A stretch of DNA of 64,000 nt from assembly GCA_903892035.1 (NCBI GenBank), contig CAITGV010000001.1, positions 419,310-483,309 on the forward strand, given 5' to 3'. This document shows, piece after piece, positions 5,551-64,000 of the stretch. How positions within the stretch are numbered: position 1 is the stretch's first letter; each line of letters opens with the position of its first letter. Under the pieces are notes generated by a model. That model was given only the letters and a program-made list of their open reading frames with translations, searched no databases and was not told where the DNA came from. Source of the stretch: an uncultured bacterium (lineage in GTDB: Bacteria > Patescibacteriota > Minisyncoccia > Phycocordibacterales > UBA9973). The translations under genes and the position numbers were made by a program.

Positions 5551-5638
5551 GGAGGATTCGCATAGCGGTCTAGTGCGCACGCTTGGAAAGCGTGTGTGGG
5601 TAAAACCACCAGGAGTTCGAATCTCCTATCCTCCGCCC
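5551..5638 (+). tRNA. tRNA-Ser (anticodon GGA)
   Basis: Acceptor stem GGAGGAT/ATCCTCC, anticodon loop cTTGGAaa, long variable arm, T-loop GGAGTTCGAATCTCC. Confidence 0.8.
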
Positions 5639-5671
5639 TCGCTTATAATAAGATATTGAACTAGAAAAATT

Positions 5672-6136
5672 ATGACCACATACAAACACACTCAAATTGG
5701 ATACCTGATGTTATTTATTACGCTAATTCTTTGTGTAATTTTTGGATGGATTTACATTTCTGCTTCAAATGAATTTCCGTCAATAAATTCGGGTCCAAAT
5801 TTTGTTTTTTCTACAATAATGGTATTGATATTATTTATTCTTATATCTTTCTCTACTCTCACTGTTTCACTCGATGAGAAAAATATCCGTATAAAATTTG
5901 GTTATGGAATTTTTAGCAGGAATTTTGAATTGAATCAAATAGCTTCAGCTCACGCAGTAAAAAATCATTGGTATTATGGATGGGGAATAAGATTTTGGCT
6001 TTGGCCAAAAATGTGGATTTATAATGTTTCAGGTTTTGATGCAGTTGAAATAATTATGAAAAACGGAAAAGTGTATCGCATAGGCATCGACACCCCAAAA
6101 GAACTCGAAACTGCACTTAAGAAATCTATACAATAA
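5672..6136 (+). CDS. Hypothetical integral membrane protein
   Basis: 154 aa with three predicted TM helices and no recognisable motifs. Confidence 0.45.
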   Translation: MTTYKHTQIGYLMLFITLILCVIFGWIYISASNEFPSINSGPNFVFSTIMVLILFILISFSTLTVSLDEKNIRIKFGYGIFSRNFELNQIASAHAVKNHWYYGWGIRFWLWPKMWIYNVSGFDAVEIIMKNGKVYRIGIDTPKELETALKKSIQ

Positions 6137-7353: not shown

Positions 7354-8457
7354 TTGGACTATAATATAAAGATGCCTCTACGTAAGACTTTTATCATATT
7401 TTCCCTAGTAATATTTTTTGCATTTGGGAATGTTGGATATACATTTGCAGATGTAAGTTTAAAGCCAGACGAAATGGTAAAGATTTTTTACTATGTGGAA
7501 ACAAATAGTGCTTATAAATCACTTAGAGATAATATTTCCAAGGTCTCAGTGGTGGCGCCTCAAGCATATTCAATAAATGCTTATGGTACTTTTTCTGGTT
7601 TACTTTCAAAACGATTGAAAAAACTTTTGGCCGACAATCCAAATGTGAAAGTGATGCCCCTAGTGATGAATAGCAATTTCAATCAAAACAGCGTTCATTT
7701 ATTTTTGAAAAATAATAAAGCAGAAGATTTGGCAATTAGTAAAATGGTGGCCTTTGCGCAAAAAAATAATTTTTCAGGTTTTCAATTAGACTTTGAACAT
7801 ATGAGTTTTTCAGATCGTGATGCTTATTCTACGTTTGTAGAAAAAGTTGGAAGTGCGTTTCATCAAAACAATCTTACTCTGTCTGTTGCCGTTGCTCCAA
7901 GGCAATCTGAAAAACCTGCAGATTATCCAAAAAATTCTTTTGCAAATTGGAGCGGAGTTTTTGATTATAAAAGAATAGGAGACGCGGCTGACTTCGTCAC
8001 GCTAATGGCTTACGATGAACCAAATGTAAATGGACCAGTGGCTTCAATTGGTTGGGTACGTCAGTCTGTGGATTATGTGCTCTCATTTATTGATGCAAAA
8101 AAAGTTTCTCTCGGGCTTCCGTTTTATGCGTGGACTTGGCATGAAAGTACAGGAAAACGAATCGCAATTTCTGGATGGAAAAATGTCGCAAATATTTTAG
8201 CAAAAAATAAAACAAAATCAGGTTGGGACAGTGAGCTTGGAACTTCATGGATTACTTACAATGGAGCACGAGGAAAATATAAAATTTGGTATGAAGATTA
8301 TAAAAGTTTTGATGCAAAATTGGCTTTAGTTCAAGAAAAAAAGTTGCAAGGTTTTTCGGCTTGGATGCTTGGTCTTGAGGATCCAAAAATTTGGACTGCG
8401 ATGGATTCTACAAATGTTGCGACATTTCCTATTGCACTCGCGGAAAACACTCGATAA
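7354..8457 (+). CDS. Glycoside hydrolase family 18 (chitinase/YaaH-like) secreted protein
   Basis: N-terminal signal/TM; a DxxDxDxE-type catalytic motif (FSGFQLDFEHM) and MAYDE motifs of GH18. Confidence 0.7.
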   Translation: MDYNIKMPLRKTFIIFSLVIFFAFGNVGYTFADVSLKPDEMVKIFYYVETNSAYKSLRDNISKVSVVAPQAYSINAYGTFSGLLSKRLKKLLADNPNVKVMPLVMNSNFNQNSVHLFLKNNKAEDLAISKMVAFAQKNNFSGFQLDFEHMSFSDRDAYSTFVEKVGSAFHQNNLTLSVAVAPRQSEKPADYPKNSFANWSGVFDYKRIGDAADFVTLMAYDEPNVNGPVASIGWVRQSVDYVLSFIDAKKVSLGLPFYAWTWHESTGKRIAISGWKNVANILAKNKTKSGWDSELGTSWITYNGARGKYKIWYEDYKSFDAKLALVQEKKLQGFSAWMLGLEDPKIWTAMDSTNVATFPIALAENTR

Positions 8458-8469
8458 TAGTATAATAGT

Positions 8470-9111
8470 TTGATGTATTTATTGGCCATTTTAAAAGGCA
8501 TTTTTGCAGGCTTTCTCATAAGCTTACCCACAGGTCCTGCTGCATTTCTTACAATAAAACGCACAATTTCAAGTGGTTTTAAGACCGGAATGGTTTCAGC
8601 TTTGGGTTGTATGGCATCGGATATGGCATACGGAAGTGTGGTTATTTTTGGACTTAGTTCAATAGCGCTTTTTATGTTGCATTGGCAACAACATATTCGT
8701 TTCGCTGGAGGAATATTATTGCTTTATGTCGGTATCACGACATATCACAGTATTAAAAGACAAGATTGGGGAAAGAAAATTCTCGGTAATAAAAATTTTG
8801 GAGATTTTGCTAGTGCTTTTTTTCTCACTGTTACAAATCCAATTCAAATTTTGACTTTCGCAATTGTCTTTGGAAGTGTCGGCGCAATTTCTGGAAGTCA
8901 TTTGATGTCTTCATTGTTTATCGGTGGATTACTTTTTGGTGCTTTGCTTTGGTGGATTATTACAAATGCTTTCATTTCAAAATATGCACGACACTGGAGT
9001 GAACATACTCAAACAATTATAAACAAAATTGCAGGAGCAGTAATAAGCATCACAGGTGTCGTGGCGCTTGTAAGTGTTATCTGTTACTTTATAAATACAC
9101 ATTGGAGATAA
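8470..9111 (+). CDS. LysE/RhtB family amino-acid exporter
   Basis: 213 aa with six TM helices and the N-terminal LxxGxFxGFLxSLPxGPA motif. Confidence 0.7.
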   Translation: MMYLLAILKGIFAGFLISLPTGPAAFLTIKRTISSGFKTGMVSALGCMASDMAYGSVVIFGLSSIALFMLHWQQHIRFAGGILLLYVGITTYHSIKRQDWGKKILGNKNFGDFASAFFLTVTNPIQILTFAIVFGSVGAISGSHLMSSLFIGGLLFGALLWWIITNAFISKYARHWSEHTQTIINKIAGAVISITGVVALVSVICYFINTHWR

Positions 9112-48933: not shown

Positions 48934-51900
48934 ATGGCATCAAGAGAAGAAAAAAAGAAAATTGAGAATAAAGAAACAAAAAAAGTTGTTGCTAGTAATA
49001 AGGAGGGGAAGGAAGTATCTCAAGAAGAATTTTTAAATATTGCGAATGCAGAGAAAAGTAAATTTGAAGAAGAGACTAAAAATGCTTTACAAAATCTCAA
49101 CTCAGTTGACCTAGATGAACATACTTTTAACGAGATAAAGAATGAAAATAAAATTGAAGAAGCGTTGGGTGAAAACTTAAAAGAGGCCAATGCGGTAATT
49201 GAGAACGCAAAGAAGAGCCTAGAGGGCGCTGAATTTAACAGAGATAAGTGCCTCTATGATTTGAAGGCCAAAATTGAAAATGCCAATAGTCTCGAGGAAA
49301 TTGTGAGTGCAGTGACGATCGTACTCGAAAGTCAAAAAGACAGAGAGGACTTAAAGATGTTATTTAATAATTTTAAGTTTAAGGCATCTGAATTGACGAG
49401 CGATGGCAAGGAGAGTCTTGTTAAAGACTATTTCGGTGACATAGTCAAAACAATTACTGAATCACTGAGCGATCCTCGAAACGTAGAACAAGTAAAGAAT
49501 ACAGACTTAGTGGACATAAAAAAACAATCCATAGAAGCACTGAGTGATATTGTTCCACCTACTTTACAGGGACAAGAAAGCCCGGAGTATCTTAAAATGC
49601 TAGAGAAAATTCAGTCTAAGATTGTTGTTCCAGAATACAATTTAAGCGAATTTGTGGATTTTTTAAACCAGTATAATGAAGTGTCAAAAGGCAGGGAGGG
49701 CACGTTTGATAAATTTATCTTTAAAGATTTTCCAAAGAAAAAAGATGACTTTTTCCATGTAAAAAATGAAATTAATTATTTATTGCAAGACCCGCTTGCG
49801 CTAGAAAAAATTGACTTTATTGATAAAAGTAGCCTAAATAAAACTCTCAATCTTTTTGACGGAGATGAATTTTATAGAACTGAATATGGTGGACCGGAGA
49901 AGGCAGAGTTTCTAGAAGACAGCAACATTCTCAAGATGCCCGATTATAAAAAAGGTGTAAATATTTTTAATACTGAATACGTTCAAACAGAAAGGGCGAA
50001 CAAATTACACGGACTGTCGTTAGGGTCACTGAAACTTGCCAAAAACAACGAGTATTTTGACATTAAAACTAAGTATTCATCTGGTGCTCCAACGATAAAT
50101 CTAATCACAGAGGAAGAACTAAAGAAAATTCACGATTTTGATAGTAATCTAAAAGAATTAGATCTATATCAAATGGAATATTTCAAAGAAAATGTTGAAA
50201 ACCTACCGCAAGACATCAAAGATTTTTACCAGAAAGTTTATAACGAGCAGAATTATTCAGGTAATTTTAGCGCAGTCGCAAATAAATCTTTTTTTGAACT
50301 GGCAAAAAGTCCTGAAAACCTGAATAAAATTAAGAAATGCTTTGAGTCCAGATTGATTAGCACTATATACGATAATAATTATATCGAAAGAGTTGCGGAG
50401 TTAGATGAAAAAATCATTGATTTGATGATAGAAACTGGAGAGGGCTTGAATGCAAACATAGAATTGTTGGAAAAAGTTGCCGGCTTAAACGATCCTGACA
50501 AGGAGAAGTACAAGGAAATTGTTGCGGGGTACAGTCTTTTATCAAATTACGATAAACTTGAAACAACAGAATATGTACAGCGTATAAAGGAAATACCTGC
50601 TGAAGAAATGGACTTTTTTCTGAAATGGCAGAATACTCAGGGTAATAAGTGCTATTTTGGAATCAAAAAACTTACAGGGCCGTTGGATGACGCACTGTAT
50701 AGGAAGGAAGATTTCTCTAAACTAGTAGAGTTCCATAATAGTAGCCCAGACGCGGACTCCTTGATTTTTGATTTTTTTGCCAAGAATGATCCATACGTTT
50801 CTGATATAGTAAGAAATATTGAAACATATGGAAAAAATCCAAAAAAGTTTTTTACAGATAACCCAAAGGATGTTATTAAAAATTTTGATGAGATTCAAAA
50901 GCTTTTGGCGAGTAGGGGCGAGTCTTTAAATCAAGAAGAACTTAACTCAATATTCAATTATACTTTGAAGAGTAGTCCTCAGATGTTTCTTGAAAAAATC
51001 AGCTTCCCACTCTCACCAGAACAGCAGAAAGTTATTGATATTTTCACGAAAATTTCAAACTCGCCATCAAGTGAAATGAAAAATATGGCGCTCGAGCTCT
51101 CACTGCAGATAGTGGAGGGTGGGGATCTTTCAACCATCGATGAACGATATGAAAAGATTGATAGCATTTTTGTGCGAAACAATATCCCGTTTGTGGGAAA
51201 GCAGGCAAAGATTTGTGAAGCGCTCCACCCTCAGATAGTTACACAAAATAATTCTAGCCCAGAACTGCAATCTCTACATAGCAACAATGCTAGGCGACTT
51301 TTGATTTTCAAAGATTTGATGCTCACAAACTTTAACAGTTTGAACTCAAACTTGGAACAATATCTTTTGGTTTTCAAAAGTGGTCAGGAGGTTTTGGATA
51401 AATATGAAAGTGGTGAGCAGTTGAGCGGAGACGAAGAAGAAAAACTGAAGTATTTCTTTAAAAAGATTAACGCTCTTTCCGAAAATACCAAAAAGACTGA
51501 CAAGTTCAACAAGTTTGATTTGGAAGATTTAAGTTTGACTGAAAACTTGCAAGCGCTGAAATCAAATTTTGGTGTTGGAGAAAATCAGACAATAATCGGC
51601 AAATTTGAAGATACTTTTTTGAAAAGAATTGGTATAAGTAATTTCTCTGAAGCCCTAAAACGTTATGATGATTTACGTGAAGCAGTAAGCAACCGTAATA
51701 AGCAACTAGCGGAGAGTGGGCAGATTAATTTAGGTGAAAATGATTTAGCTAAGGGTATTTCTATTGATTATTTTGATAAAAATCTTGATCGAGGTATTTA
51801 TGCACCTGAGTTTATTGGGGCAGAAACCATTGAAGCAAAAGGTAAATCAAAAGGCAGTGATTCTACGCCATGGGATACGGATTTAATTATGGTCGGAAAT

Positions 51901-53154
51901 AGGAATACTTCAGAAATTATAGAAAAATCTACAGCTTCAGGGTATGGCGAAGCAATAATAATCATCAGAGATAGAGGCCAATTTAATCGTACGGAAAAAG
52001 GACAACCCATAGAAAAAGGTCAAGATAAATTGGAGTTATTTAAGACTCGTGCTTTGGGCGAGGACCATTATGGTATCAGGACTGGTTTTGGTTCGACCGA
52101 GATTGATGCGTTGCTGGCCAAGGATAATGTAATACAAAATAGCAAACAGCTAGATTCGCTGAAGTTCTCAATAGCGCAAAAGGGCTTCTATATACCTATC
52201 TGCGATAAAACAGGCAAGGTTATTTTTACTGCCGATGAATATGAAGAATACAAGAAAATATTTGCTGGTGTTGATAAATATCATGGTGAGGAAATCAGCT
52301 TACGGGAAGACTGGAAAAATTCTAAATTCAGCGAAGACATTAGCAAGTTTTCTCAAACTAACGAAAATCTTGATAATATTAACAAGATTAAGGATGATAT
52401 TTATTCTGATATTGAAAGTGACCTGAAAACTTTTGGAATTGAGCTTCATAAAGGACGTTACGACGATAGCGTTGTGGGAGCAAAGATAATCGATACAGGC
52501 TCTACTGGTCGTGGTGCAGCCCTCGACGAAGGATATGATCTTGACTTTGTTATTAAGGTCGACGATCGGGATGCAGATAAGATTAGTCAAATGGCTGAAA
52601 ATTTGAAAAAGAAGTATCCATATGATCAAGATTATGAAAGAGATGGCATGAGAACGTATAGGTTTAAGAGTTTTGAAAAAGATGGAAACAAAATTGACTT
52701 GGATATTAGTTTTGTCAAAAAATCAGACAGTGAAGAACTTGATGCAAATGAAGCCGTCGCGCAGAAGTACGACTCTATCAAAAAATCTTCAGGAGAAGAT
52801 AAGTTACTTGATGTTCTAACAAATGTCAGATTTGCAAAAAAGGAGTTGAAGGAAGCAGGTTGCTATAAGAAAGGAATGACTGGTAATGGAGAACAACAAG
52901 GCGGAATGGGTGGCATTGGCGTTGAAAACTGGATATTGCAAAATGGTGGAGATGCGGTGGATGCATTTAGAGATTTCAATAAAAATGCTTACCAAGATGG
53001 TGAACTCGTATCATTTAATGACTTCAAGAAAAAATACAAGATCTTCAGCGCTGGTAGCAATATACGAGGCGGAGTCAAGGCAGAAAACTTCGTTTATAAT
53101 ATGGATGAAACAGGCTATAATAAAATGGCTGAACTTTCGAAGAAGTTTATTTAG
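48934..53154 (+). CDS. Giant (1406 aa) protein: long Lys/Glu/Asn-rich helical N-terminal region plus a C-terminal polymerase-beta-superfamily nucleotidyltransferase domain
   Basis: C-terminal motif IIDTGSTGRGAALDEGYDLDFVIKVDD (hG[GS]x9-13DhD) plus a downstream IDLDISF acidic strand. No signal peptide. Located inside the pur cluster. Confidence 0.75.
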   Translation: MASREEKKKIENKETKKVVASNKEGKEVSQEEFLNIANAEKSKFEEETKNALQNLNSVDLDEHTFNEIKNENKIEEALGENLKEANAVIENAKKSLEGAEFNRDKCLYDLKAKIENANSLEEIVSAVTIVLESQKDREDLKMLFNNFKFKASELTSDGKESLVKDYFGDIVKTITESLSDPRNVEQVKNTDLVDIKKQSIEALSDIVPPTLQGQESPEYLKMLEKIQSKIVVPEYNLSEFVDFLNQYNEVSKGREGTFDKFIFKDFPKKKDDFFHVKNEINYLLQDPLALEKIDFIDKSSLNKTLNLFDGDEFYRTEYGGPEKAEFLEDSNILKMPDYKKGVNIFNTEYVQTERANKLHGLSLGSLKLAKNNEYFDIKTKYSSGAPTINLITEEELKKIHDFDSNLKELDLYQMEYFKENVENLPQDIKDFYQKVYNEQNYSGNFSAVANKSFFELAKSPENLNKIKKCFESRLISTIYDNNYIERVAELDEKIIDLMIETGEGLNANIELLEKVAGLNDPDKEKYKEIVAGYSLLSNYDKLETTEYVQRIKEIPAEEMDFFLKWQNTQGNKCYFGIKKLTGPLDDALYRKEDFSKLVEFHNSSPDADSLIFDFFAKNDPYVSDIVRNIETYGKNPKKFFTDNPKDVIKNFDEIQKLLASRGESLNQEELNSIFNYTLKSSPQMFLEKISFPLSPEQQKVIDIFTKISNSPSSEMKNMALELSLQIVEGGDLSTIDERYEKIDSIFVRNNIPFVGKQAKICEALHPQIVTQNNSSPELQSLHSNNARRLLIFKDLMLTNFNSLNSNLEQYLLVFKSGQEVLDKYESGEQLSGDEEEKLKYFFKKINALSENTKKTDKFNKFDLEDLSLTENLQALKSNFGVGENQTIIGKFEDTFLKRIGISNFSEALKRYDDLREAVSNRNKQLAESGQINLGENDLAKGISIDYFDKNLDRGIYAPEFIGAETIEAKGKSKGSDSTPWDTDLIMVGNRNTSEIIEKSTASGYGEAIIIIRDRGQFNRTEKGQPIEKGQDKLELFKTRALGEDHYGIRTGFGSTEIDALLAKDNVIQNSKQLDSLKFSIAQKGFYIPICDKTGKVIFTADEYEEYKKIFAGVDKYHGEEISLREDWKNSKFSEDISKFSQTNENLDNINKIKDDIYSDIESDLKTFGIELHKGRYDDSVVGAKIIDTGSTGRGAALDEGYDLDFVIKVDDRDADKISQMAENLKKKYPYDQDYERDGMRTYRFKSFEKDGNKIDLDISFVKKSDSEELDANEAVAQKYDSIKKSSGEDKLLDVLTNVRFAKKELKEAGCYKKGMTGNGEQQGGMGGIGVENWILQNGGDAVDAFRDFNKNAYQDGELVSFNDFKKKYKIFSAGSNIRGGVKAENFVYNMDETGYNKMAELSKKFI

Positions 53155-57078: not shown

Positions 57079-58446
57079 ATGATTGATGCGATAAATCCGC
57101 TGGATGGGAGATATAAAGATAAGGTTAAACCTTTGGCGGAATACTTCGGCGAGTACGCTCTGATGAAATATCGAGTGATGATGGAATGTGAATTTTTGGT
57201 ATGTTTGGCTGATTCTAAAATTACAACACTACGAAAATTAAGTACTGCAGAAATCGCTCTACTTCGAAACCTTTACAACAATTTTTCCGAGAAATCTTAC
57301 AACGCAATAAAGAAATTTGAAGCCACAACAAATCACGACGTAAAAGCCGTGGAATATTTCATAAAAGACGCACTTAAAGGTACGAGTTTAAAAGACGCTA
57401 TGGAATGGGTGCATTTCGGTTTGACTTCGGAAGACACGAATAACTGTGCAAATGCTCTGATGCTTTCGCTTGGTTCTCGCAATGTAATACTCCCCGCAAT
57501 AGTTGGCATTGAAAACATGCTCCGCACTTTTGCAAAAGAATATAAAAATCTTCCAATGCTTGCTCGCACGCACGGACAGAGCGCAAGCCCGACAACTCTC
57601 GGAAAAGAATTTGCAGTTTTCACAGCGCGCATAAAACGCCAGCGTGAGCAAATGGCAAAATATAAAATTTTGATAAAGTTAAATGGCGCGACGGGGAATT
57701 ACAATGCTTTTGTTTCCGCATATCCAAAAGCAGACTGGCTTGGTTTTACAAAAAAGTTTACAAAGCACCTCGCAGAAATTTCCGGAGCAGAACTTGAAGC
57801 GAATTTAATTACAACGCAAATTGAAAGTCACGACACATATGCCGAGCTTTTCGATATGATGCGCCGAGCAAATACGATAATGCTTGATTTGAATCAAGAT
57901 ATTTGGCGCTATATAAGTGATGGGTATTTGAGTCAGAAAACAAAAGCTGGGGAAGTTGGATCTTCGACGATGCCACACAAAGTGAACCCAATTGATTTTG
58001 AAAATAGTGAAGGCAACTTGGGAATCGCAAATTCTTTATTTGAATTCTTTGCACGAAAGCTTCCTATTTCTCGACTTCAGCGCGACCTTTCCGACTCGAC
58101 AGTCGAGCGTGCTTTCGGTACAGCATTTGGGCATTCATACTTGGCATATGTATCGCTGGAAAAAGGTTTGGGTAAAATCGGCGTGAATGAAAATAAAATA
58201 AAAGAAGATTTACTCGCTCACCCAGAAGTCGTCGCAGAAGCGATTCAGACAGTGCTTCGTCGTGAAGGCTATCCGATACCATATGAAGCACTGAAAGGCC
58301 TCACGCGTGGCAAGGTGGTGACAATGGAGGACTTCGCAGTATTTATCGACGGACTCGATGTAAATAAAAATATTAAAATAGAATTGAAAAAATTCACTCC
58401 ACAAAGTTATATCGGTCTCGCAGGAAAAATCGCCGGCATGGCGTAA
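57079..58446 (+). CDS. purB: Adenylosuccinate lyase
   Basis: Fumarate-lyase signature SSTMPHKVNP. Confidence 0.9.
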   Translation: MIDAINPLDGRYKDKVKPLAEYFGEYALMKYRVMMECEFLVCLADSKITTLRKLSTAEIALLRNLYNNFSEKSYNAIKKFEATTNHDVKAVEYFIKDALKGTSLKDAMEWVHFGLTSEDTNNCANALMLSLGSRNVILPAIVGIENMLRTFAKEYKNLPMLARTHGQSASPTTLGKEFAVFTARIKRQREQMAKYKILIKLNGATGNYNAFVSAYPKADWLGFTKKFTKHLAEISGAELEANLITTQIESHDTYAELFDMMRRANTIMLDLNQDIWRYISDGYLSQKTKAGEVGSSTMPHKVNPIDFENSEGNLGIANSLFEFFARKLPISRLQRDLSDSTVERAFGTAFGHSYLAYVSLEKGLGKIGVNENKIKEDLLAHPEVVAEAIQTVLRREGYPIPYEALKGLTRGKVVTMEDFAVFIDGLDVNKNIKIELKKFTPQSYIGLAGKIAGMA

Positions 58447-58453
58447 AATACAA

Positions 58454-58528
58454 GCCATCATAGCTTAGTGGCAAAGCACTCCCTTGGTAAGGGAGAGACC
58501 GTGAGTCCGATTCTCACTGATGGCTCCA
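58454..58528 (+). tRNA. tRNA-Thr (anticodon GGT)
   Basis: Acceptor GCCATCA/TGATGGC, discriminator T, CCA encoded. Anticodon loop CTTGGTAA; T-arm GAGTCCGATTCTC. Confidence 0.85.
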
Positions 58529-60035
58529 GAATCAAACAGGACGGGTTTTGAGAAAAATTTTGGCGGGCAGAGCGAAGCTCTGCCCAAGGATTTAAAGGGT
58601 TTCCGAATGCTTCTCGTTTTTGGAGGGTGAGGCTCGAGCCGAAGATTTTTTGGAGGGAGATTTTTTTGGAGGGGAGGTCGTTCGTATTGGCGATTTCATC
58701 CAGTATTAAAGCGTCTTTTATCCATTCTCGCGTCGGTTCGATCCATGCGGAGGGGGTTCGCAAAAGTCGCTGTATTTTTTCCTCAACAGACTTTTTATCG
58801 GACATGAAAGAACGACGCCTTTCGAGGTAGTCGTCTCGTTCGATATCTTGAGAAACATAGACATCTGTAAGTCTGGTGAGGTTTTTTGAAATGTTTTGTT
58901 CTTCTTCTCGCAATTCCAACACAGCTTCTGATGCAGTATGTTTATTTTTCTGTTCTTCAACATCCAACATTTCAAAAAGTTTTGTCGCCCATGCTTTAGG
59001 CATCATATATTCAACAAGTATTGCTGAAAGCTGGCGATCCAGTTCTTCGCCTCGCACGCAAGGCTCAAAACATTTTTGCGTTTTGGATTTCTTTGAGCAG
59101 TGATAATAGGTGTATAAATGTTTTGTGCCATTCTTTTGTCGTTTGATTTTTAGCTCTCCCGTTATTCCCATGCCACAATTCCCGCACGACATAAGCCCGC
59201 AAAATGGTCTCGGGTCAGTTTTCTTGTCGGGCGTTCGACCGCGACCTCGCAATACAGCGTTTGCTTTATCAAAAAGTTCTTTGGAAATAATCGGTTCATG
59301 TTTACCCTCGTATATTTCCCCTGCGTGGCGAAAATGTCCGTAGTAGATAGGGTTGCAAATAATATGCGATATTCTCGAAACATGGACACGATTATTATTT
59401 TTTGATTTTATTTCCGAGTTTTCCAAAATCACAGCGAGGTCTTCAAGTCGCACATTTCCTGTGGCGTAAAGTTCAAATATTTTCTTCACGAGTTTCGCAT
59501 TTTTTTGATGAAGTGCAATTTTCTTGATTGCGGGATTGTTGATATAGCCGAACGGAGCAAGACTGGGGAAGTCGCCATTTCGTGCCTTTTGTCGCAGTCC
59601 GCGAGCGGTATTTTCGCTGAGTTGTCGGACATATTCATTAGCCATTCCTAGCTCCACAGACATCATCAACACATTGTCATTTGGAAAATGACTTTGTCCG
59701 TGAGTTTGGATATGTTGGATTATGTTTTGCTGGAGCATCCATTGGATTTTTCCGCTATCTACTGGATTACGAGATAAGCGATCAATTTTCCAGCAAACAA
59801 TTCCTTGCGCTTCTTCATTCTGAACACGCGAAAGCATTTCATTAAAAATTGGTCTGCCTGGAATTTTCGCAGAACGCTTTTCTATAAACTCATCGGCGAT
59901 TGATAGATTTTCACGCTTGGCAAGCTCGCGCAATTCGGTGAGCTGTGCCTCGATAGATAGGATTTGTTTATCCTCCACATCTGTTGATTTGCGAGCGTAT
60001 AAAAAGTATTTAAGCATGGTTGTATTATACCACAA
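58458..60035 (-). CDS. Large serine recombinase (resolvase/invertase N-domain, recombinase domain, zinc ribbon, coiled coil)
   Basis: N-terminal YARKSTDVEDKQILSIEAQ (catalytic Ser), zinc-ribbon CGLMSCGNCG...HCSKKSKTQKC and a coiled-coil. The last ~75 codons read through the left inverted repeat and the tRNA-Thr antisense, so the true C-terminus is uncertain. Confidence 0.85.
   Translation of the reverse strand: MWYNTTMLKYFLYARKSTDVEDKQILSIEAQLTELRELAKRENLSIADEFIEKRSAKIPGRPIFNEMLSRVQNEEAQGIVCWKIDRLSRNPVDSGKIQWMLQQNIIQHIQTHGQSHFPNDNVLMMSVELGMANEYVRQLSENTARGLRQKARNGDFPSLAPFGYINNPAIKKIALHQKNAKLVKKIFELYATGNVRLEDLAVILENSEIKSKNNNRVHVSRISHIICNPIYYGHFRHAGEIYEGKHEPIISKELFDKANAVLRGRGRTPDKKTDPRPFCGLMSCGNCGMGITGELKIKRQKNGTKHLYTYYHCSKKSKTQKCFEPCVRGEELDRQLSAILVEYMMPKAWATKLFEMLDVEEQKNKHTASEAVLELREEEQNISKNLTRLTDVYVSQDIERDDYLERRRSFMSDKKSVEEKIQRLLRTPSAWIEPTREWIKDALILDEIANTNDLPSKKISLQKIFGSSLTLQKREAFGNPLNPWAELRSARQNFSQNPSCLILEPSVRIGLTVSPLPRECFATKL
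58522..58692. repeat. Left ~170-bp inverted repeat of the recombinase element (overlaps the tRNA-Thr 3' end)
   Basis: Near-identical to the reverse complement of 61060..61243. Contains internal palindrome GGGCAGAGC-GAA-GCTCTGCCC and three TTTTTGGAGGG sub-repeats. Inner end: TTGGAGGGGAGGTCGT. Confidence 0.8.
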
Positions 60036-60077
60036 CGGATGGCGTAAAATACAACCAAAGAGTATAATCCGTGGATA

Positions 60078-60281
60078 ATGAATGAATCAGAGAAACTGGG
60101 TGAAAATTTAAAGCGTATCAGGACAGCCAAAGAAATATCGCAAGGCGAGATTAGCCGTATTCTCGGCGTGGATAAAAGTTTTGTGAGTAATATAGAAAAT
60201 GGCAAGACAAACCCGACACTTGCAACGATTGCAAAAATTGCGAAAGCGATCGGAGTTTCGGTTGGGGAGTTAATGAAATAA
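60078..60281 (+). CDS. XRE-family helix-turn-helix transcriptional regulator
   Basis: 67 aa with a classic Cro/C1 HTH: LKRIRTAKEISQGEISRILGVDKSFVSNIENGKTNPTLATIAKIAKAIGVSVGEL. Confidence 0.75.
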   Translation: MNESEKLGENLKRIRTAKEISQGEISRILGVDKSFVSNIENGKTNPTLATIAKIAKAIGVSVGELMK

Positions 60282-60284
60282 AAT

Positions 60285-60980
60285 ATGACAAGAAAAAACG
60301 ACATAGAAGCTCTTTTAGAAAGAGTAGGAAAAGCAGAACCAAAGATTATTGAAGAATATAACAAATCACTTCACGATAAAACGATTGGAAATAATTTGAA
60401 AATTGATATTAAAGATTATTTTAGTCATCTTCGCTCTGTGTTGGATTATTTAGCTCATGATATTGTGGAAAAAAATTGCCCAAATGTTGACCCGAAAGAT
60501 AGGTTATATTTTCCTATTGGTTCAGACCAAAGTTCGTTTGAAGGAATAATGAAAAAATCATATCCTGATCTTAGTACAAATTCTATAAAAGTTTATAGTA
60601 TCCTAGAAAATATTCAACCATATAAGAAATCAGAAAATTTGTGGCTCAGTTCTTTCAATAAAATTAATAACGAAAATAAACACGAGCAGTTAACTCCTCA
60701 AAAAAGAACAGAAACAAAGAGGATAAATGTACAAGCTAATAACGGAGCTTCTGTTTCTTGGAATCCTTCTTCCGTTCGATTTGGTTCGGGTGTTTCAATT
60801 GCTGGAGTACCTGTAAATCCTAGTACGCAAATGCCAGTACCTTCAAATATTCAAACAGTAACGATTGAAACTTGGGTAGATTTTCAGTTTGAGGGTACGG
60901 GAGTATCAGCAATTTGGTTAGTAAAAGAAAGTCTCAAAAATGTAAAGGAAATTTTTAATGATTTGAAAAATTATATTTAA
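60285..60980 (+). CDS. Hypothetical protein (231 aa), cargo of the recombinase element
   Basis: ATG overlaps the XRE gene stop (ATAAAATATG). No recognisable motifs. The C-terminal half is predicted beta-rich. Confidence 0.5.
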   Translation: MTRKNDIEALLERVGKAEPKIIEEYNKSLHDKTIGNNLKIDIKDYFSHLRSVLDYLAHDIVEKNCPNVDPKDRLYFPIGSDQSSFEGIMKKSYPDLSTNSIKVYSILENIQPYKKSENLWLSSFNKINNENKHEQLTPQKRTETKRINVQANNGASVSWNPSSVRFGSGVSIAGVPVNPSTQMPVPSNIQTVTIETWVDFQFEGTGVSAIWLVKESLKNVKEIFNDLKNYI

Positions 60981-61059
60981 ATTAGGGAGTTTGACGATTT
61001 ACTAATCGGCAAAATTTTTAACACGCGCACGGGTGGGTGGGGCAAGTGTTATCTGAATT

Positions 61060-61243
61060 GCACGACCTCCCCTCCAAAAAAATCTTCCCTCCAAAAATCT
61101 TGGGCTTTTGAATTTTTGAACCTCACCCTCCAAAAACGAGAAGCATTCGGAAACCCTTTAAATCCTTGGGCAGAGCTTCGCTCTGCCCGCCAAAATTTTT
61201 CTCAAAACCCGCCCGTTTTAATTCTGGAGTCCCTCTTAAACAA
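61060..61243. repeat. Right ~180-bp inverted repeat of the recombinase element
   Basis: Reverse complement matches 58522..58692 (GGGCAGAGCGAAGCTCTGCCC, GAGAAAAATTTTGGCGGG, the TTTTTGGAGGG sub-repeats, and a copy of the last ~10 nt of tRNA-Thr). Confidence 0.8.
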
Positions 61244-61285
61244 GGCTCGAACCTACTTTAGCAAAAATTCGTAAGAGTACAAACA

Positions 61286-61500
61286 ATGCTAAGTGGTACG
61301 CTCCACGACCGTCGTTCATCCGAGTTACCACTACGCTCGCACTCTGTGCTAATTCTGTCGCCCGCTTCTCATCGGGAGTACCCTCACGATGTCCGCCCCT
61401 CTCCCGCATCGCTTTTCCATTCTTCTTTGAGTCGGCGGGGTTTCTTTTTGATTCGTATGGGCGATGCGGGAGGGGCGGGCGAGATCTAGAAAATTTTGAC
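61286..61500. other. GC-rich structured intergenic segment with a 19-bp perfect inverted repeat (CCGCCCCTCTCCCGCATCGC ... GCGATGCGGGAGGGGCGGG); candidate structured RNA or element remnant
   Basis: Sharp GC-rich island in an AT-rich genome. The long-range stem encloses a ~45-nt loop. Shares the CCCTCTCC/GGGAGGGG motif with the intragenic palindromic elements. No match to rRNA, tRNA, tmRNA, RNase P or SRP consensus that I can recognise. Confidence 0.3.
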
Positions 61501-61562
61501 TAAAATATATAATAATGTTATTATGTATAAAAATAAATTTGTTCACTTAAAACGTATTAAAA

Positions 61563-62588
61563 ATGGAAGATAAGAAATTAGATAAACAAGTCGCTGGCAT
61601 TTCTGCCGTAGCTCATTACGTTCCGCAGTTAATTAGAACTAGCGAGGATGTAGAAAAGTTGATTAATGCTCACTTAAAGCCAGAAATACAAACTGGCAGT
61701 ATTGAACGCCTTTCAGGTATTATCACTCGACACATTTCTCGTGAAGATGAATACAATTCTACCTTGGCGATAGGAGCATGTCGCATTCTTTTTGAAAAAG
61801 AAAAAATAAATCCAAGTGATATTGATTTATTGATTTTTGCTTCAACTGGTCAAGACATACTCGAACCTGCAACTGCACACATTGTGCAGGCAGAAATTGG
61901 CACGCATTGTAGAGTAATGGATATTAAAAATGCATGCAATGGATTTATTGATGCTTTTGATGTTGCGGTTTCTCTTATTGAAACGGGTAGACATAAAAAG
62001 GTACTAATTGCTACAGGTGAAGTGCCAAGCAAAGCTGCAAAGTTTGAAGTCCCCGATCGTGATTTACTACAGCAATATCTTGTAGGACACACCTTTGGTG
62101 ATTGCGGTACTGCGGTACTGATTACAGAAAAACCTAAGATTGCTACTGTAATAGATTCTTTCTTTTTTTCGGATAGTAGTAATTGGGATGTCGCAATGTT
62201 TCCAGGAGGTGGATCACGTTTTTTAAACCAACGAGATGCCTATTTCTTTAGAGGAGACGCAACTGCTCTCATGGAACCATTTTTCGTCCACACAAAAAGG
62301 CTACTTGAAGACTTTTTGAAACGAAACAATATTTCTCTGTCTAACATTGATCATATCTTCGTACACCAAGTTGCAGAATTTGTTTTAGATAGAATTTGTA
62401 ATGATTTACAAATTCCAAAAGCAAAGATACAGGTTACGATCAAAGAATATGGAAATGTAGCGGCAGCGAGTTTACCACTTGCCCTTGATTTACGCTTAAA
62501 AAGCCAGATTATTTTTTCTGGAACTTATGGGTTGTTTATCGGATTTGCAGGTGGCTTCAGTATTGGGTTTACGCTGGTTAAGTTTTAG
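61563..62588 (+). CDS. 3-oxoacyl-ACP synthase III (FabH/KAS III)-like condensing enzyme
   Basis: Thiolase-fold; active-site Cys in NACNGF; C-terminal HQVAEF/GNVAAASLPLAL (His/Asn region). Confidence 0.7.
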   Translation: MEDKKLDKQVAGISAVAHYVPQLIRTSEDVEKLINAHLKPEIQTGSIERLSGIITRHISREDEYNSTLAIGACRILFEKEKINPSDIDLLIFASTGQDILEPATAHIVQAEIGTHCRVMDIKNACNGFIDAFDVAVSLIETGRHKKVLIATGEVPSKAAKFEVPDRDLLQQYLVGHTFGDCGTAVLITEKPKIATVIDSFFFSDSSNWDVAMFPGGGSRFLNQRDAYFFRGDATALMEPFFVHTKRLLEDFLKRNNISLSNIDHIFVHQVAEFVLDRICNDLQIPKAKIQVTIKEYGNVAAASLPLALDLRLKSQIIFSGTYGLFIGFAGGFSIGFTLVKF

Positions 62589-62610
62589 TTGTCCTTCGGA
62601 AAAATTTTCA

Positions 62611-62642
62611 AAATCTGCACCAGAAATGGTGCAGATTTTTTT
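62611..62642 (+). terminator. Rho-independent terminator after the FabH-like gene
   Basis: Stem AAATCTGCACC/GGTGCAGATTT with loop AGAAAT, followed by a T-run. Confidence 0.6.
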
Positions 62643-62651
62643 ACGCAAAAT

Positions 62652-62660
62652 TGCTATAAT
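62652..62660 (+). promoter_or_regulatory. Extended -10 box TGCTATAAT upstream of the acyl-AMP ligase gene
   Basis: AAAATTGCTATAATCATACAGCACGAT ATG; the same nonamer occurs at 16257 and 25782. Confidence 0.35.
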
Positions 62661-62673
62661 CATACAGCACGAT

Positions 62674-64000
62674 ATGAAATACACTCTTTATTCGAACATT
62701 ATTTTAAATAGTTTAAAAACCACACTTTCAAGCACAGAAAGTGCTCTTATTTTTGATCATAAAAATCGGAACATTACGGGAGTACAAATTTTAGAATCTA
62801 TAGACAAAATTGCTCTAGAACTTATTGGCGAAGGAATAAAAAGAAATGATAGGATTATCTTTTTAGTTAGACCGTCTATAGAATCTATAATCTATTTTTT
62901 TGCTCTACTGCGTGCAGGAGTTGTTGTTGTTCTTGTTGACCCTGAAATGGGACAAGAGAATTTTGTCAGCCGAATCAAATTTTCAAAAGCTCATTTTATC
63001 TTACAAGATAAAATTTTAGAGAAAATTGAAAAGTATTCTTTTATTAAACCTTTACTTAGATTTTTAAATATATGGTTTCCTGATAATTTACCAATTCCTA
63101 CTCAAAATAGAATTACGGTAAAAAATCTTGAATTCATATTACAACGAAATACCGCAGGTATTATTGATGAAAAAGTAGTTGATGCAAGTGAAGATATGGT
63201 AATTATATTTACTTCTGGGACAGTCAATAAACCTAAAGGGGTTGTGCATTCTTACTCATCTTTATTTAATGCACTTAATATAATTTCTTCTGAAATATCA
63301 ATTTCAAAAAGCGATTTTCTATACGCTTCACAATTCTACTTCTTACTCATTGGACTTATGGTTTCTGCTCGGACTTACATTCCAAAAAATAAAACTTTTA
63401 GTCCTGAAAGTTTTTTAAAAATTGGTTTAAAATTCAAGATAACAAGTGCTTTTCTTTTGCCGTATGAGGGCGAGCTTATTTATAAATATTGCACAAAAAA
63501 TAAAATAATCCTTCCTAATTCTTTTAAAACGATCTTATTCGGCTCTGCTCCAGTTACAAAAGGTTTTTTGTCACGATTTTCAAATATATGTAATCTATCA
63601 TTAAAAGTTTACGGTGTTTACGGGGCAACTGAAATGTTGCCAATTTCACTAGTGGAAATGCAGGAAAAAATAAATTATAAAGGCAAGGGAGATTTACTTG
63701 GTAAGCCAACAAAAGGAGTGGAAATAAAAATTTCAGAAGATAAAGAAATTCTTGTTTCTGGCTCTCAATTATTTGTTAAGTATCTAGGCGACAATGAAAA
63801 AGCGAAATATTTTTACTCGGGAGATTTAGGTGAAATTGACAATGAGGGCAACATCATATTATTAGGACGGAAAAAAGATATGATTATTCGGAAAGGATTT
63901 AACATCTATCCAACTTTATTTGAAGTAAGTATTAGTAAAATGCCTGAAATTATTGAGTGTAGTATTGTTGGTGTATATGACGACAAAACAGAAGACGAAA
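62674..64000 (+). CDS. AMP-dependent synthetase/ligase (acyl-CoA/acyl-AMP ligase), 3' end outside window
   Basis: AMP-binding motif IFTSGTVNKPKGVVHSY and later YGVYGATE. The ORF runs off the window end, so it is absent from the ORF track. Confidence 0.75.
   Translation, partial: MKYTLYSNIILNSLKTTLSSTESALIFDHKNRNITGVQILESIDKIALELIGEGIKRNDRIIFLVRPSIESIIYFFALLRAGVVVVLVDPEMGQENFVSRIKFSKAHFILQDKILEKIEKYSFIKPLLRFLNIWFPDNLPIPTQNRITVKNLEFILQRNTAGIIDEKVVDASEDMVIIFTSGTVNKPKGVVHSYSSLFNALNIISSEISISKSDFLYASQFYFLLIGLMVSARTYIPKNKTFSPESFLKIGLKFKITSAFLLPYEGELIYKYCTKNKIILPNSFKTILFGSAPVTKGFLSRFSNICNLSLKVYGVYGATEMLPISLVEMQEKINYKGKGDLLGKPTKGVEIKISEDKEILVSGSQLFVKYLGDNEKAKYFYSGDLGEIDNEGNIILLGRKKDMIIRKGFNIYPTLFEVSISKMPEIIECSIVGVYDDKTEDE

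Follow-up and report, generated by a model that had tools for sequence, protein, structure and literature searches.

What sort of element sets a serine recombinase gene directly against a transfer RNA (tRNA) gene and then encloses it between long repeats that are inverted? The question is raised by positions 58,454 to 61,243 of the 64,000-nucleotide stretch analysed here (the window), which covers positions 419,310 to 483,309 of contig CAITGV010000001.1 (assembly GCA_903892035.1) from an uncultured bacterium of the Patescibacteriota. A preliminary description of this DNA recognised a serine-recombinase mobile element adjoining tRNA-Thr, and proposed an invertible switch, a past inversion between attL and attR, or a transposon-like unit to account for the repeats. 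The first part of that description stands. For the repeats a different explanation is preferred: the window probably holds part of a ~10.3-kb integrative island of the large serine recombinase (LSR) type, located at the 3′ end of tRNA-Thr(GGT), which keeps within it a conserved, inverted copy of its own attachment site, attP. The sites and sequences on which this rests are the following.

58454 to 58528, + strand: tRNA-Thr(GGT), the target gene (ARAGORN; Rfam tRNA, 67.7 bits).
58458 to 60017, − strand: LSR gene, 519 aa from M7, within a frame open to 60035 (Pfam, homologue alignment, AlphaFold2 (AF2)).
58524 to 58531, + strand: attL core region, CTCCAGAA (four-site alignment).
58524 to 58681, no strand assigned: left inverted-repeat arm, a, on the recombinase side; the inner attachment-site arm, 158 nt, encoding recombinase residues ~452-519.
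61062 to 61229, no strand assigned: right inverted-repeat arm, a′, on the cargo side; 168 nt, with a 10-bp insertion.
61222 to 61272, − strand: core (CTGGAG on the + strand) and P arm (reverse complement, TTTTTGCTAAAGTAGGTTCGAGCCTTGTTTAAGAGGGA), which with a′ make up an intact attP-type site, S2, inverted with respect to attL.
61273 to 61485, − strand: conserved structured non-coding module, str, with a pair of GAGCGT motifs, small GC hairpins and, at 61390-61481, a long hairpin that covaries and has CCCCGCC(G/A)A as its apical motif.
61486 to 64000, + strand: start of segment Z, with FabH-like (61563-62588) and AMP-ligase (from 62527) genes (Pfam, gene lists).

The right end of the island is supplied by a sister contig from the same population (L094), which overlaps the window from 61344 and extends ~5.8 kb past its end. 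This contig has a second copy of str and P, 97.3% identical over 260 bp and inverted with respect to 61222-61481, hence direct to the tRNA, and the copy is followed by CTCCAG and then by unrelated DNA with a terminator-like hairpin. The attR is in this way placed at the window-equivalent of ~68794-68799, ~7.5 kb to the right of a′, in direct orientation to attL and with the CTCCAG core in common. The locus thus has the make-up of an integrative island, with attL at 58524 and attR at ~68794 as direct sites sharing a core, an integrase at one end and a tRNA that is restored. The tRNA-Thr(GGT) gene beside it is intact as judged by both ARAGORN and Rfam, and its T-arm and acceptor 3′ strand are the B half-site of attL. 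The island extends from 58524 to the window-equivalent of ~68799, the window having the tRNA-proximal 5.5 kb.

Alignment of the junctions gives attL as tRNA, CTCCAG and AATCAAAC..., the internal site S2 as P, CTCCAG and AATTAAAAC..., and attR as P, CTCCAG and AAAAATTATC.... All three have CTCCAG(AA) in common, the arms being swapped at that point, and the crossover must fall inside the sequence that they share. The P arm of S2 is 97% identical to that of attR. S2 is precisely the product that attL × attR would regenerate, and it is therefore an intact attP, but one that lies inverted inside the island; since this is so, the ~160-nt inverted repeats are two copies of the inner attachment-site arm, one belonging to attL and the other to the internal attP. 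Several parts of the preliminary description have to be revised as a result. The right arm belongs to an intact attP-type site and not to attR, which disposes of a past inversion between attL and attR; the interval 58454-61243 is not a bounded unit, as conserved element sequence runs to ~61485 and attR lies further right again; and the repeats do not each hold the last ~10 nt of tRNA-Thr, the tRNA bases common to both arms being the last 5-6 nt only (CTCCA+G).

The same organisation recurs across a family. In the species-representative genomes of GTDB there are at least 573 related loci, nearly all in bacteria of the candidate phyla radiation (CPR), of which 80 were fetched for comparison. An inverted repeat of 110-173 nt is present in 56 of the 80, where one arm is the 3′ end of the recombinase gene, stopping 3-6 nt inside the tRNA, and the distal arm sits past 0.1-4.5 kb of variable cargo. 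The structure is no assembly artefact, because it recurs in 56 independent assemblies that include a closed long-read chromosome (L074; OY970354.1). The earlier view that the repeats are inverted, near-identical and the property of the recombinase is upheld by the way in which the two travel together in these loci; the opposite outcome, of a genome-wide repeat unrelated to the recombinase, is contradicted by the same linkage and by the confinement of the repeat to this one locus in the window.

Past the distal arm ~255 nt are conserved, comprising the P arm and the ~210-nt str region, and in the window this conservation ends at ~61485, at the base of the long str hairpin and just ahead of a fabH promoter-like site at 61496-61524. 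The sequence that abuts the distal arm on its outside (...TTTTTGCTAAAATAGGTTCGAGCnnnGTTTAAnAGnnn, as part of AAATAGGTTCGAGC...GTTTAA and str) is conserved irrespective of the target tRNA, and the P arm is found there in at least 39 loci. A reading of this right flank (GGTTCGAGCC...CTCCA) as a tRNA or transfer-messenger RNA (tmRNA) 3′ end was rejected, as ARAGORN and Rfam are silent and the T-stem is unpaired in relatives, and the flank was reread as the P half-site. Within str the stem of the long hairpin varies in sequence while its pairing is kept in every locus, with an apex of CCCCGC(C/G)AA; this was judged from folds of the individual loci, the MAFFT alignment being too poorly registered for counts of pairs. 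The idea that str is a known RNA was dropped, as no Rfam family matches it even at E≤10.

The complete layout of the island is also seen in other loci, whose second copies of P have 100% identity over 204-206 nt in L074, L042 and L085, 97.5% over 161 nt in L046 and, in a more diverged form, 83% over ~100 nt in L014; solo attR-type sites are seen in L036, L026 and L014. Many contigs end 40-140 nt outside S2, as expected when assembly is broken by a repeat. In L036 the solo str-P-core module (8290-8700) lies 700 bp upstream of an occupied tRNA-Thr, with a type I restriction HsdR gene further out, and this adjacency implies that several islands abut around clustered tRNA genes. On L094 a second island of the family begins at tRNA-Thr(CGT) (8316-8446), ~0.9 kb past attR; close to the core its arm is identical to that of S2 in the first island, and not to that of attL, and a degenerate P-like remnant touches the 5′ end of this tRNA gene.

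How closely can the point of exchange be defined? Comparison of attP-type with attR-type junctions limits the crossover to 4-8 common bases at the tRNA end, namely GAGC in L046 and L085, GAGCA in L074, CTCCAGT in L042 and CTCCAGAA in the window, and from other loci the core can be narrowed to the final bases of the acceptor together with the discriminator and CCA. Exchange at the core happens in nature, because in L027 two 97%-identical P arms are joined to differing inner arms exactly at CACCA and in L035 the module lies between two tRNA-like ends. The T-loop motif of the tRNA, GGTTCGA, is present in the P arm as well, 4 bp further from the core, and a GTTTAA/TCAAAC motif, placed 8-14 bp from the core, appears in mirror image in the P arm and in the inner arm. 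In the work of Rutherford, Van Duyne and colleagues of 2013, attP half-sites are said to put the zinc-ribbon contact ~5 bp further out than attB half-sites, a picture with which the 4-bp shift of GGTTCGA agrees. The attB was reconstructed as GATGGCTCCAG + AAAAATTATCAG..., with a reconstituted junction in which …CACTGATGGCTCCAG meets AAAAATTATCAGATACATAGG…, and the junction of the attP circle as …GTTTAAGAGAGACTCCAG meeting AATCAAACAGGACGGG….

Two further features lie in the left arm.

58565 to 58585, no strand assigned: palindrome H1, GGGCAGAGC-GAA-GCTCTGCCC, which covaries across the family.
58624 to 58677, no strand assigned: most conserved arm core, GAGGYTCGAGCCGAAGATTTTTTGGAGGGAG...GGAGGGGAGGTCG, with low entropy at all three codon phases (arm alignment).

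The palindrome of 21 nt has its sole copies in the window at 58565-58585 and 61168-61188, where chance would give 0, and exact copies of TTTTTGGAGGG number three per arm with none elsewhere in the 64 kb, just as first described. Two of the three lie in the arm core, along with a AGGTTCGAGC-type motif that is also in the P arm. The recombinase reading frame (58458-60035) passes through the left arm and then antisense through the tRNA, in which its stop codon lies, so that the C-terminus is indeed encoded by the repeat. That the left arm is real coding sequence follows both from the AF2 fold of the residues it encodes and from column entropy, which peaks at the wobble phase of the recombinase frame along the whole arm. 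In the AF2 model coiled-coil helices (residues 347-396 and 400-443) lead into a folded return segment (445-496), and these arm-encoded residues form a confident segment of helix, hairpin and helix, the predicted local distance difference test score being 87-92 in the block of residues 441-490; disorder is limited to residues 497-525, the core-proximal and antisense-tRNA part. In the homologue alignment the C-termini all read '...LILEPxxGIEPxTSxLPxxCSTN', which is the translation of antisense tRNA T-arms.

A nucleic-acid constraint is imposed on top of this coding constraint, because the palindromes covary and the wobble positions of the core are conserved. Across 42 arms H1 is 85% paired, with double changes in 8 of its 9 pairs, and the second palindrome, H2, is 70% paired, with double changes in 7 of 7, a covariation that was reached by 0 of 500 shuffles, while a 52-nt arm core is conserved even at wobble positions. 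Moreover, the two arms of an element undergo concerted evolution. Over the outer 110 nt the median identity is 97.7% within an element, whereas the closest arm of any other element reaches 84.5%, and in 37 of 42 cases an arm is more similar to its own partner than to any outsider; the window's arms match at 96% over their outer 112 nt and at 89% over their inner 45 nt. In at least 28 loci, the window among them (10 bp, at ~61107-61117), a frame-breaking insertion of 7-11 bp lengthens the cargo-side arm; it is never found in the recombinase-side arm.

Put together, the parts of the proposed island would run from attL (tRNA T-arm and acceptor as B, the CTCCAG core and arm a) through the recombinase gene, which converges on the tRNA and would have its last ~68 codons within arm a, to the divergent helix-turn-helix (HTH) gene and the 231-aa cargo gene. 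There would then follow a′, core, P arm and structured region as a complete inverted copy of attP, and beyond it the fabH-type biosynthetic cluster, the direct copy of str and P, CTCCAG and the original tRNA-downstream DNA, the last of these junctions being attR. The LSR would integrate by attP × attB, probably reading the GGTTCGA motif of the T-arm, and the excised circle would hold two inverted copies of attP, with a recombinase/defence segment on one side of them and the cargo segment on the other. We presume the spare inverted attP to be functional, selection retaining it and gene conversion keeping the copies alike. In the family, flips or other uses of the sites do occur on rare occasions (L034, L047), and the likeliest role of the spare attP is as an alternative or exchange site for an occasional flip or swap of the recombinase module, as in L034, L027 and L035; it is probably not a frequent switch.

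A number of points weigh against such an island. Among 15 loci with 3.4-5.7 kb of distal flank a second P copy is not seen, and some of these flanks carry housekeeping genes such as topA and dprA, so the long form of the island may not be universal. Relatives of the fabH cluster (78-83% DNA identity) are found in other chromosomal contexts without P arms, and therefore Z could be trapped host DNA and not cargo. The arm alignment reveals no mirror GAACC motif in the inner arm. The 24-mer of the reconstructed empty site has no match in JGI metagenome contigs, and exact-protein look-ups turned up occupied sites only and no excised circle, for which reason the mobility of the window's copy is something that we infer. 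Finally, canonical LSRs are not known to recombine attP with attL, attR or another attP, and there is no known precedent for a recombination role of an internal site in the integrated state. A route to the empty site through fabH homologues failed, their upstream regions being unrelated, and no recombination directionality factor was identified in the family.

Could the internal site nevertheless be at work? A bolder form of the island proposal is that the inverted attP is active, that the mobile form is a circle with two inverted attPs, and that the recombinase flips, amplifies or swaps the recombinase/defence module between tRNA islands; this we advance tentatively and hold to be rather unlikely. 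The nearest model is the yeast 2-micron plasmid, in which FLP, a tyrosine recombinase, acts on identical FRT sites in 599-bp inverted repeats and where frequent flipping leads to copy-number amplification. As an analogy only, the proposed excised circle is similar in that two long inverted repeats with recombinase targets would split two unique segments, one of them coding for the recombinase. It differs in that the orientation of the island is almost fixed and that no replication function is known for it and, in contrast to FLP, LSRs are not known to recombine two attP sites. If the proposal were true, it would amount to a natural recombinase-mediated cassette exchange that has no need of a directionality factor, and to a new mode of LSR action and of defence-gene traffic.

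A routine invertible switch, in which the recombinase or RecA would flip 58.5-61.2 kb between the arms and so change the genes exposed to read-through from the tRNA gene or the distal flank, is less probable still. The geometry is suitable, as the att-like sites are inverted, each with its core on the outer side of its arm, and as identical arms would let the recombinase frame survive a flip, the ORF at 61116-61274 repeating its tail. The module in L034 is in the opposite orientation, and in L047 a recombinase arm is joined to a P arm. Against these, however, a single orientation is present in all arm-spanning contigs of the window's population, the recombinase-side flank is tRNA- or tmRNA-like in ~49 of 50 readable loci and a P arm in 1, and on the distal side at least 39 loci have the P arm and 1-2 have a tRNA-like end. 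This leaves ~1-2 flipped loci in ~50 (L034, perhaps L047), or a common orientation in ~48 of 50, and the 7-11 bp insertion of the cargo-side arm is never found reversed. No promoter or alternative coding end is placed for switching, and the recombinase is served by a −10 element of its own, 6-10 nt from the ATG. The enzyme, moreover, is a 519-aa LSR with repeats of 158/168 nt and not an invertase of the Hin/Gin type with ~26-bp sites. Systems such as Hin/hix, Gin/gix and PinQ employ small invertases with a C-terminal HTH, which act at 26-bp sites with the help of a Fis enhancer and are usually encoded outside the segment, and both orientations are common in their populations. The island resembles these invertons in having inverted sites at the edges of a segment with a serine recombinase within or beside it, but it shows none of these other traits.

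Equally improbable, in our estimation, is a role at the level of RNA or regulation, whereby the ~160-nt module ends both divergent units and insulates them from transcription of the tRNA or from outside, or whereby the internal attP is an operator or decoy in the self-regulation of the recombinase; the recombination competence of the internal site would then hardly matter. Two covarying palindromes do favour a folded nucleic acid over a sequence-specific protein site, G-U pairs exceed A-C pairs by 50 to 27 on the tRNA-sense strand, and the wobble positions of the core are conserved beyond the needs of coding. By symmetry the same sequence is read into by both operons, and for the far hairpin the cargo-sense strand gives the better fold, U-rich tracts coming after it in many loci. 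Yet in a consensus scan neither H1 nor H2 is called as a terminator, nor is a promoter called in the P arm, and an insulator does not require an intact P arm with a tRNA-matched core, both of which are conserved. The duplicated, inverted str and P arm are also left unexplained. An autonomous 2.7-kb transposon that is bounded by terminal inverted repeats and has landed between the tRNA and some unrelated flank is very improbable: the arms are near-identical and symmetric around the recombinase module, and short-read assemblies often give that module as a separate contig of 2-3.5 kb, but contig breaks at repeats are an expected effect of assembly, the right arm is not a terminus, the 255 bp past it being conserved family sequence with attR 7.5 kb away, no target-site duplication is present at the arm ends, and 0 of 105 tRNAs have an inverted P arm directly downstream as a landing pad. 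A perfectly palindromic attP with a mobile arm-to-arm unit was likewise rejected, since the junction dinucleotides do not fit and the same landing pad is found at none of the 105 tRNAs.

With the integrative island as the preferred reading, its closest known kin are LSR elements and prophages (Bxb1, phiC31, A118, TP901-1, SPbeta SprA, SCCmec Ccr). Shared with these are a three-domain recombinase with a coiled coil, a short core common to attL and attR between arms that are otherwise unrelated, a target gene whose function is kept, and a recombinase gene beside attL. The island family differs from them in targeting tRNA and tmRNA 3′ ends with a correspondence between recombinase clade and tRNA, in a recombinase ORF that traverses the inner arm to the crossover region, and in having an inverted intact attP inside, with inverted repeats of 160 nt (arm) and 200-260 nt (str and P) that evolve in concert. 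As a concept the closest are the tycheposons of Prochlorococcus and other tRNA islands, which also are small cargo elements at the tRNA-proximal end of variable regions, with tRNA-specific integrase clades, arrays at neighbouring tRNAs, and defence and niche cargo (bioRxiv 10.1101/2020.12.28.424599). In tycheposons the recombinase is mostly of the tyrosine type (910 of 937), direct repeats of part of the tRNA form the flanks and replication genes are often present; they belong to another host phylum, and an internal inverted attachment site is not described for them (bioRxiv 10.1101/2020.12.28.424599). In literature of incomplete coverage neither this CPR island family nor the retention of an inverted intact attP by an integrated LSR element was found described, and the family is apparently a widespread and seemingly undescribed one in CPR/Patescibacteria.

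Why should this matter? Much of bacterial diversity belongs to the CPR/Patescibacteria, and next to nothing is known of the ways in which these exchange genes. The family, which counts at least 573 loci in species representatives and has protein clusters in the thousands, seems to serve as a major carrier of defence systems in the CPR, each recombinase clade being tied to one tRNA. It also offers a natural LSR panel for genome engineering, in which attP, attL and attR can be read from genomes and attB is provided by tRNA ends, which are universal. That an LSR element should retain its own attP intact once integrated challenges the textbook picture of attL plus attR, and an active internal site would give serine integrases a new route by which to rearrange or exchange modules.

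With regard to the recombinase, the true start according to homologues is M7 (ATG at 60015-60017), and Pfam detects Resolvase (PF00239, 6.8e-22), Recombinase (PF07508, 3.8e-17) and Zn_ribbon_recom (PF13408, 8.2e-07). The resolvase domain, at the N-terminus, has the conserved catalytic serine, the YARKSTDVEDKQ block with S17 being invariant in 27 homologues. Homologues at E≤1e-20 number 3793 and are typically ~516 aa long and 60-88% identical; the few named sources are Parcubacteria, Paceibacterota and Patescibacteria. A −10 element of the TGGTATAAT or GGTATGAT type lies only 6-10 nt before the recombinase ATG in the window (60018-60035) and in 12 of 12 relatives inspected, which suggests a near-leaderless recombinase mRNA. 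The P arm as a promoter for the recombinase, with the distal arm as its 5′ leader, was rejected, as the cargo lies antisense between them, the gene has its own −10 at the ATG and no promoter is called in P. Two genes follow on the other side of the recombinase start.

60078 to 60281, + strand: XRE/HTH_3 regulator gene (Pfam HTH_3, 9.7e-17), divergent from the recombinase.
60285 to 60980: 231-aa cargo ORF (ORF call).

The HTH gene occupies the same place beside the recombinase in 37 of 80 loci (tblastn), which makes it a conserved core gene of the family. The 231-aa protein has no Pfam match and 851 representative homologues. At a tRNA-Arg in L071 a copy of it that is 87% identical stands beside a recombinase just 51% identical to that of the window, a pairing from which it follows that cargo passes between elements.

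Across the family the recombinase 3′ end overlaps a convergent tRNA in 54 of 66 fetched loci with a readable flank. Relatives at least 60% identical are at tRNA-Thr (GGT, CGT or TGT), and those of 50-55% identity are at one of 12 other types (Asn, Gln, Val, Ala, Leu, Ser, Arg, Tyr, Trp, Ile, Glu or Gly). Three further loci adjoin tmRNA-like 3′ ends. Targets of this kind (...GTAAGCGAAGGACGAGGTCnCCGGTTCAATCCCGG...) are seen at L025 3912-4040, L031 2400-2530, L033 7495-7625 and L035 ~5600-5735; none is called by ARAGORN or by Rfam at the gathering score, and current models may overlook some CPR tmRNAs.

Cargo genes are nearly always on the strand opposite the recombinase. Recurrent families among 69 cargo proteins are type II restriction-modification, PtuA/AriA/GajA/Old-type ATPases, which resemble Septu/PARIS/Gabija, AbiL, DUF4411 with Peptidase_M78, DUF3800, DUF4238 and KAP NTPase, and the Z segments of the family have GmrSD or oxidase/PNPOx genes. 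The cargo is thus mostly anti-phage defence genes, a context that bears out the suggestion of defence-like cargo made for the window. A phage origin, be it prophage or phage satellite, was rejected, as the 69 cargo proteins include no virion, packaging or replication Pfam families and as no relatives were found among the 2.9 million viral contigs of IMG/VR.

A few lesser features deserve mention. In the window's own Z segment (61563-64000, continuing in L094 220-6583), the cluster between the inverted str-P copies comprises genes for a FabH-like KAS III, an AMP-dependent ligase, an NAD-dependent reductase/epimerase, proteins of 310 and 127 aa of no known identity, an SRPBCC cyclase and an AurF-like N-oxygenase. 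Adjoining the attR-side str is a GC-rich non-coding tract of ~550 nt (L094 6650-7190; window-equivalent ~67990-68530), which has the segment CGAGGCGGATGCCGAGG in common with the same position in L071, L016 and L008 and matches nothing in Rfam even at E≤1. An exact 16-nt direct repeat, ATGGCGTAAAATACAA, is present at 58438-58453, where it covers the purB stop codon and the 5′ flank of tRNA-Thr, and at 60039-60054, in the 60-bp divergent region between recombinase and HTH genes; its interpretation as an att remnant was rejected, as it is absent from 54 other related loci. Further upstream a gene of 1406 aa (~48934-53154) stands between purN and purD in the purine-biosynthesis operon and has no Pfam hit in the contig gene tables that were looked up. 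Near a related island, L051 has a LOOT RNA at 7985-8104 (RF03000, 80.6 bits).

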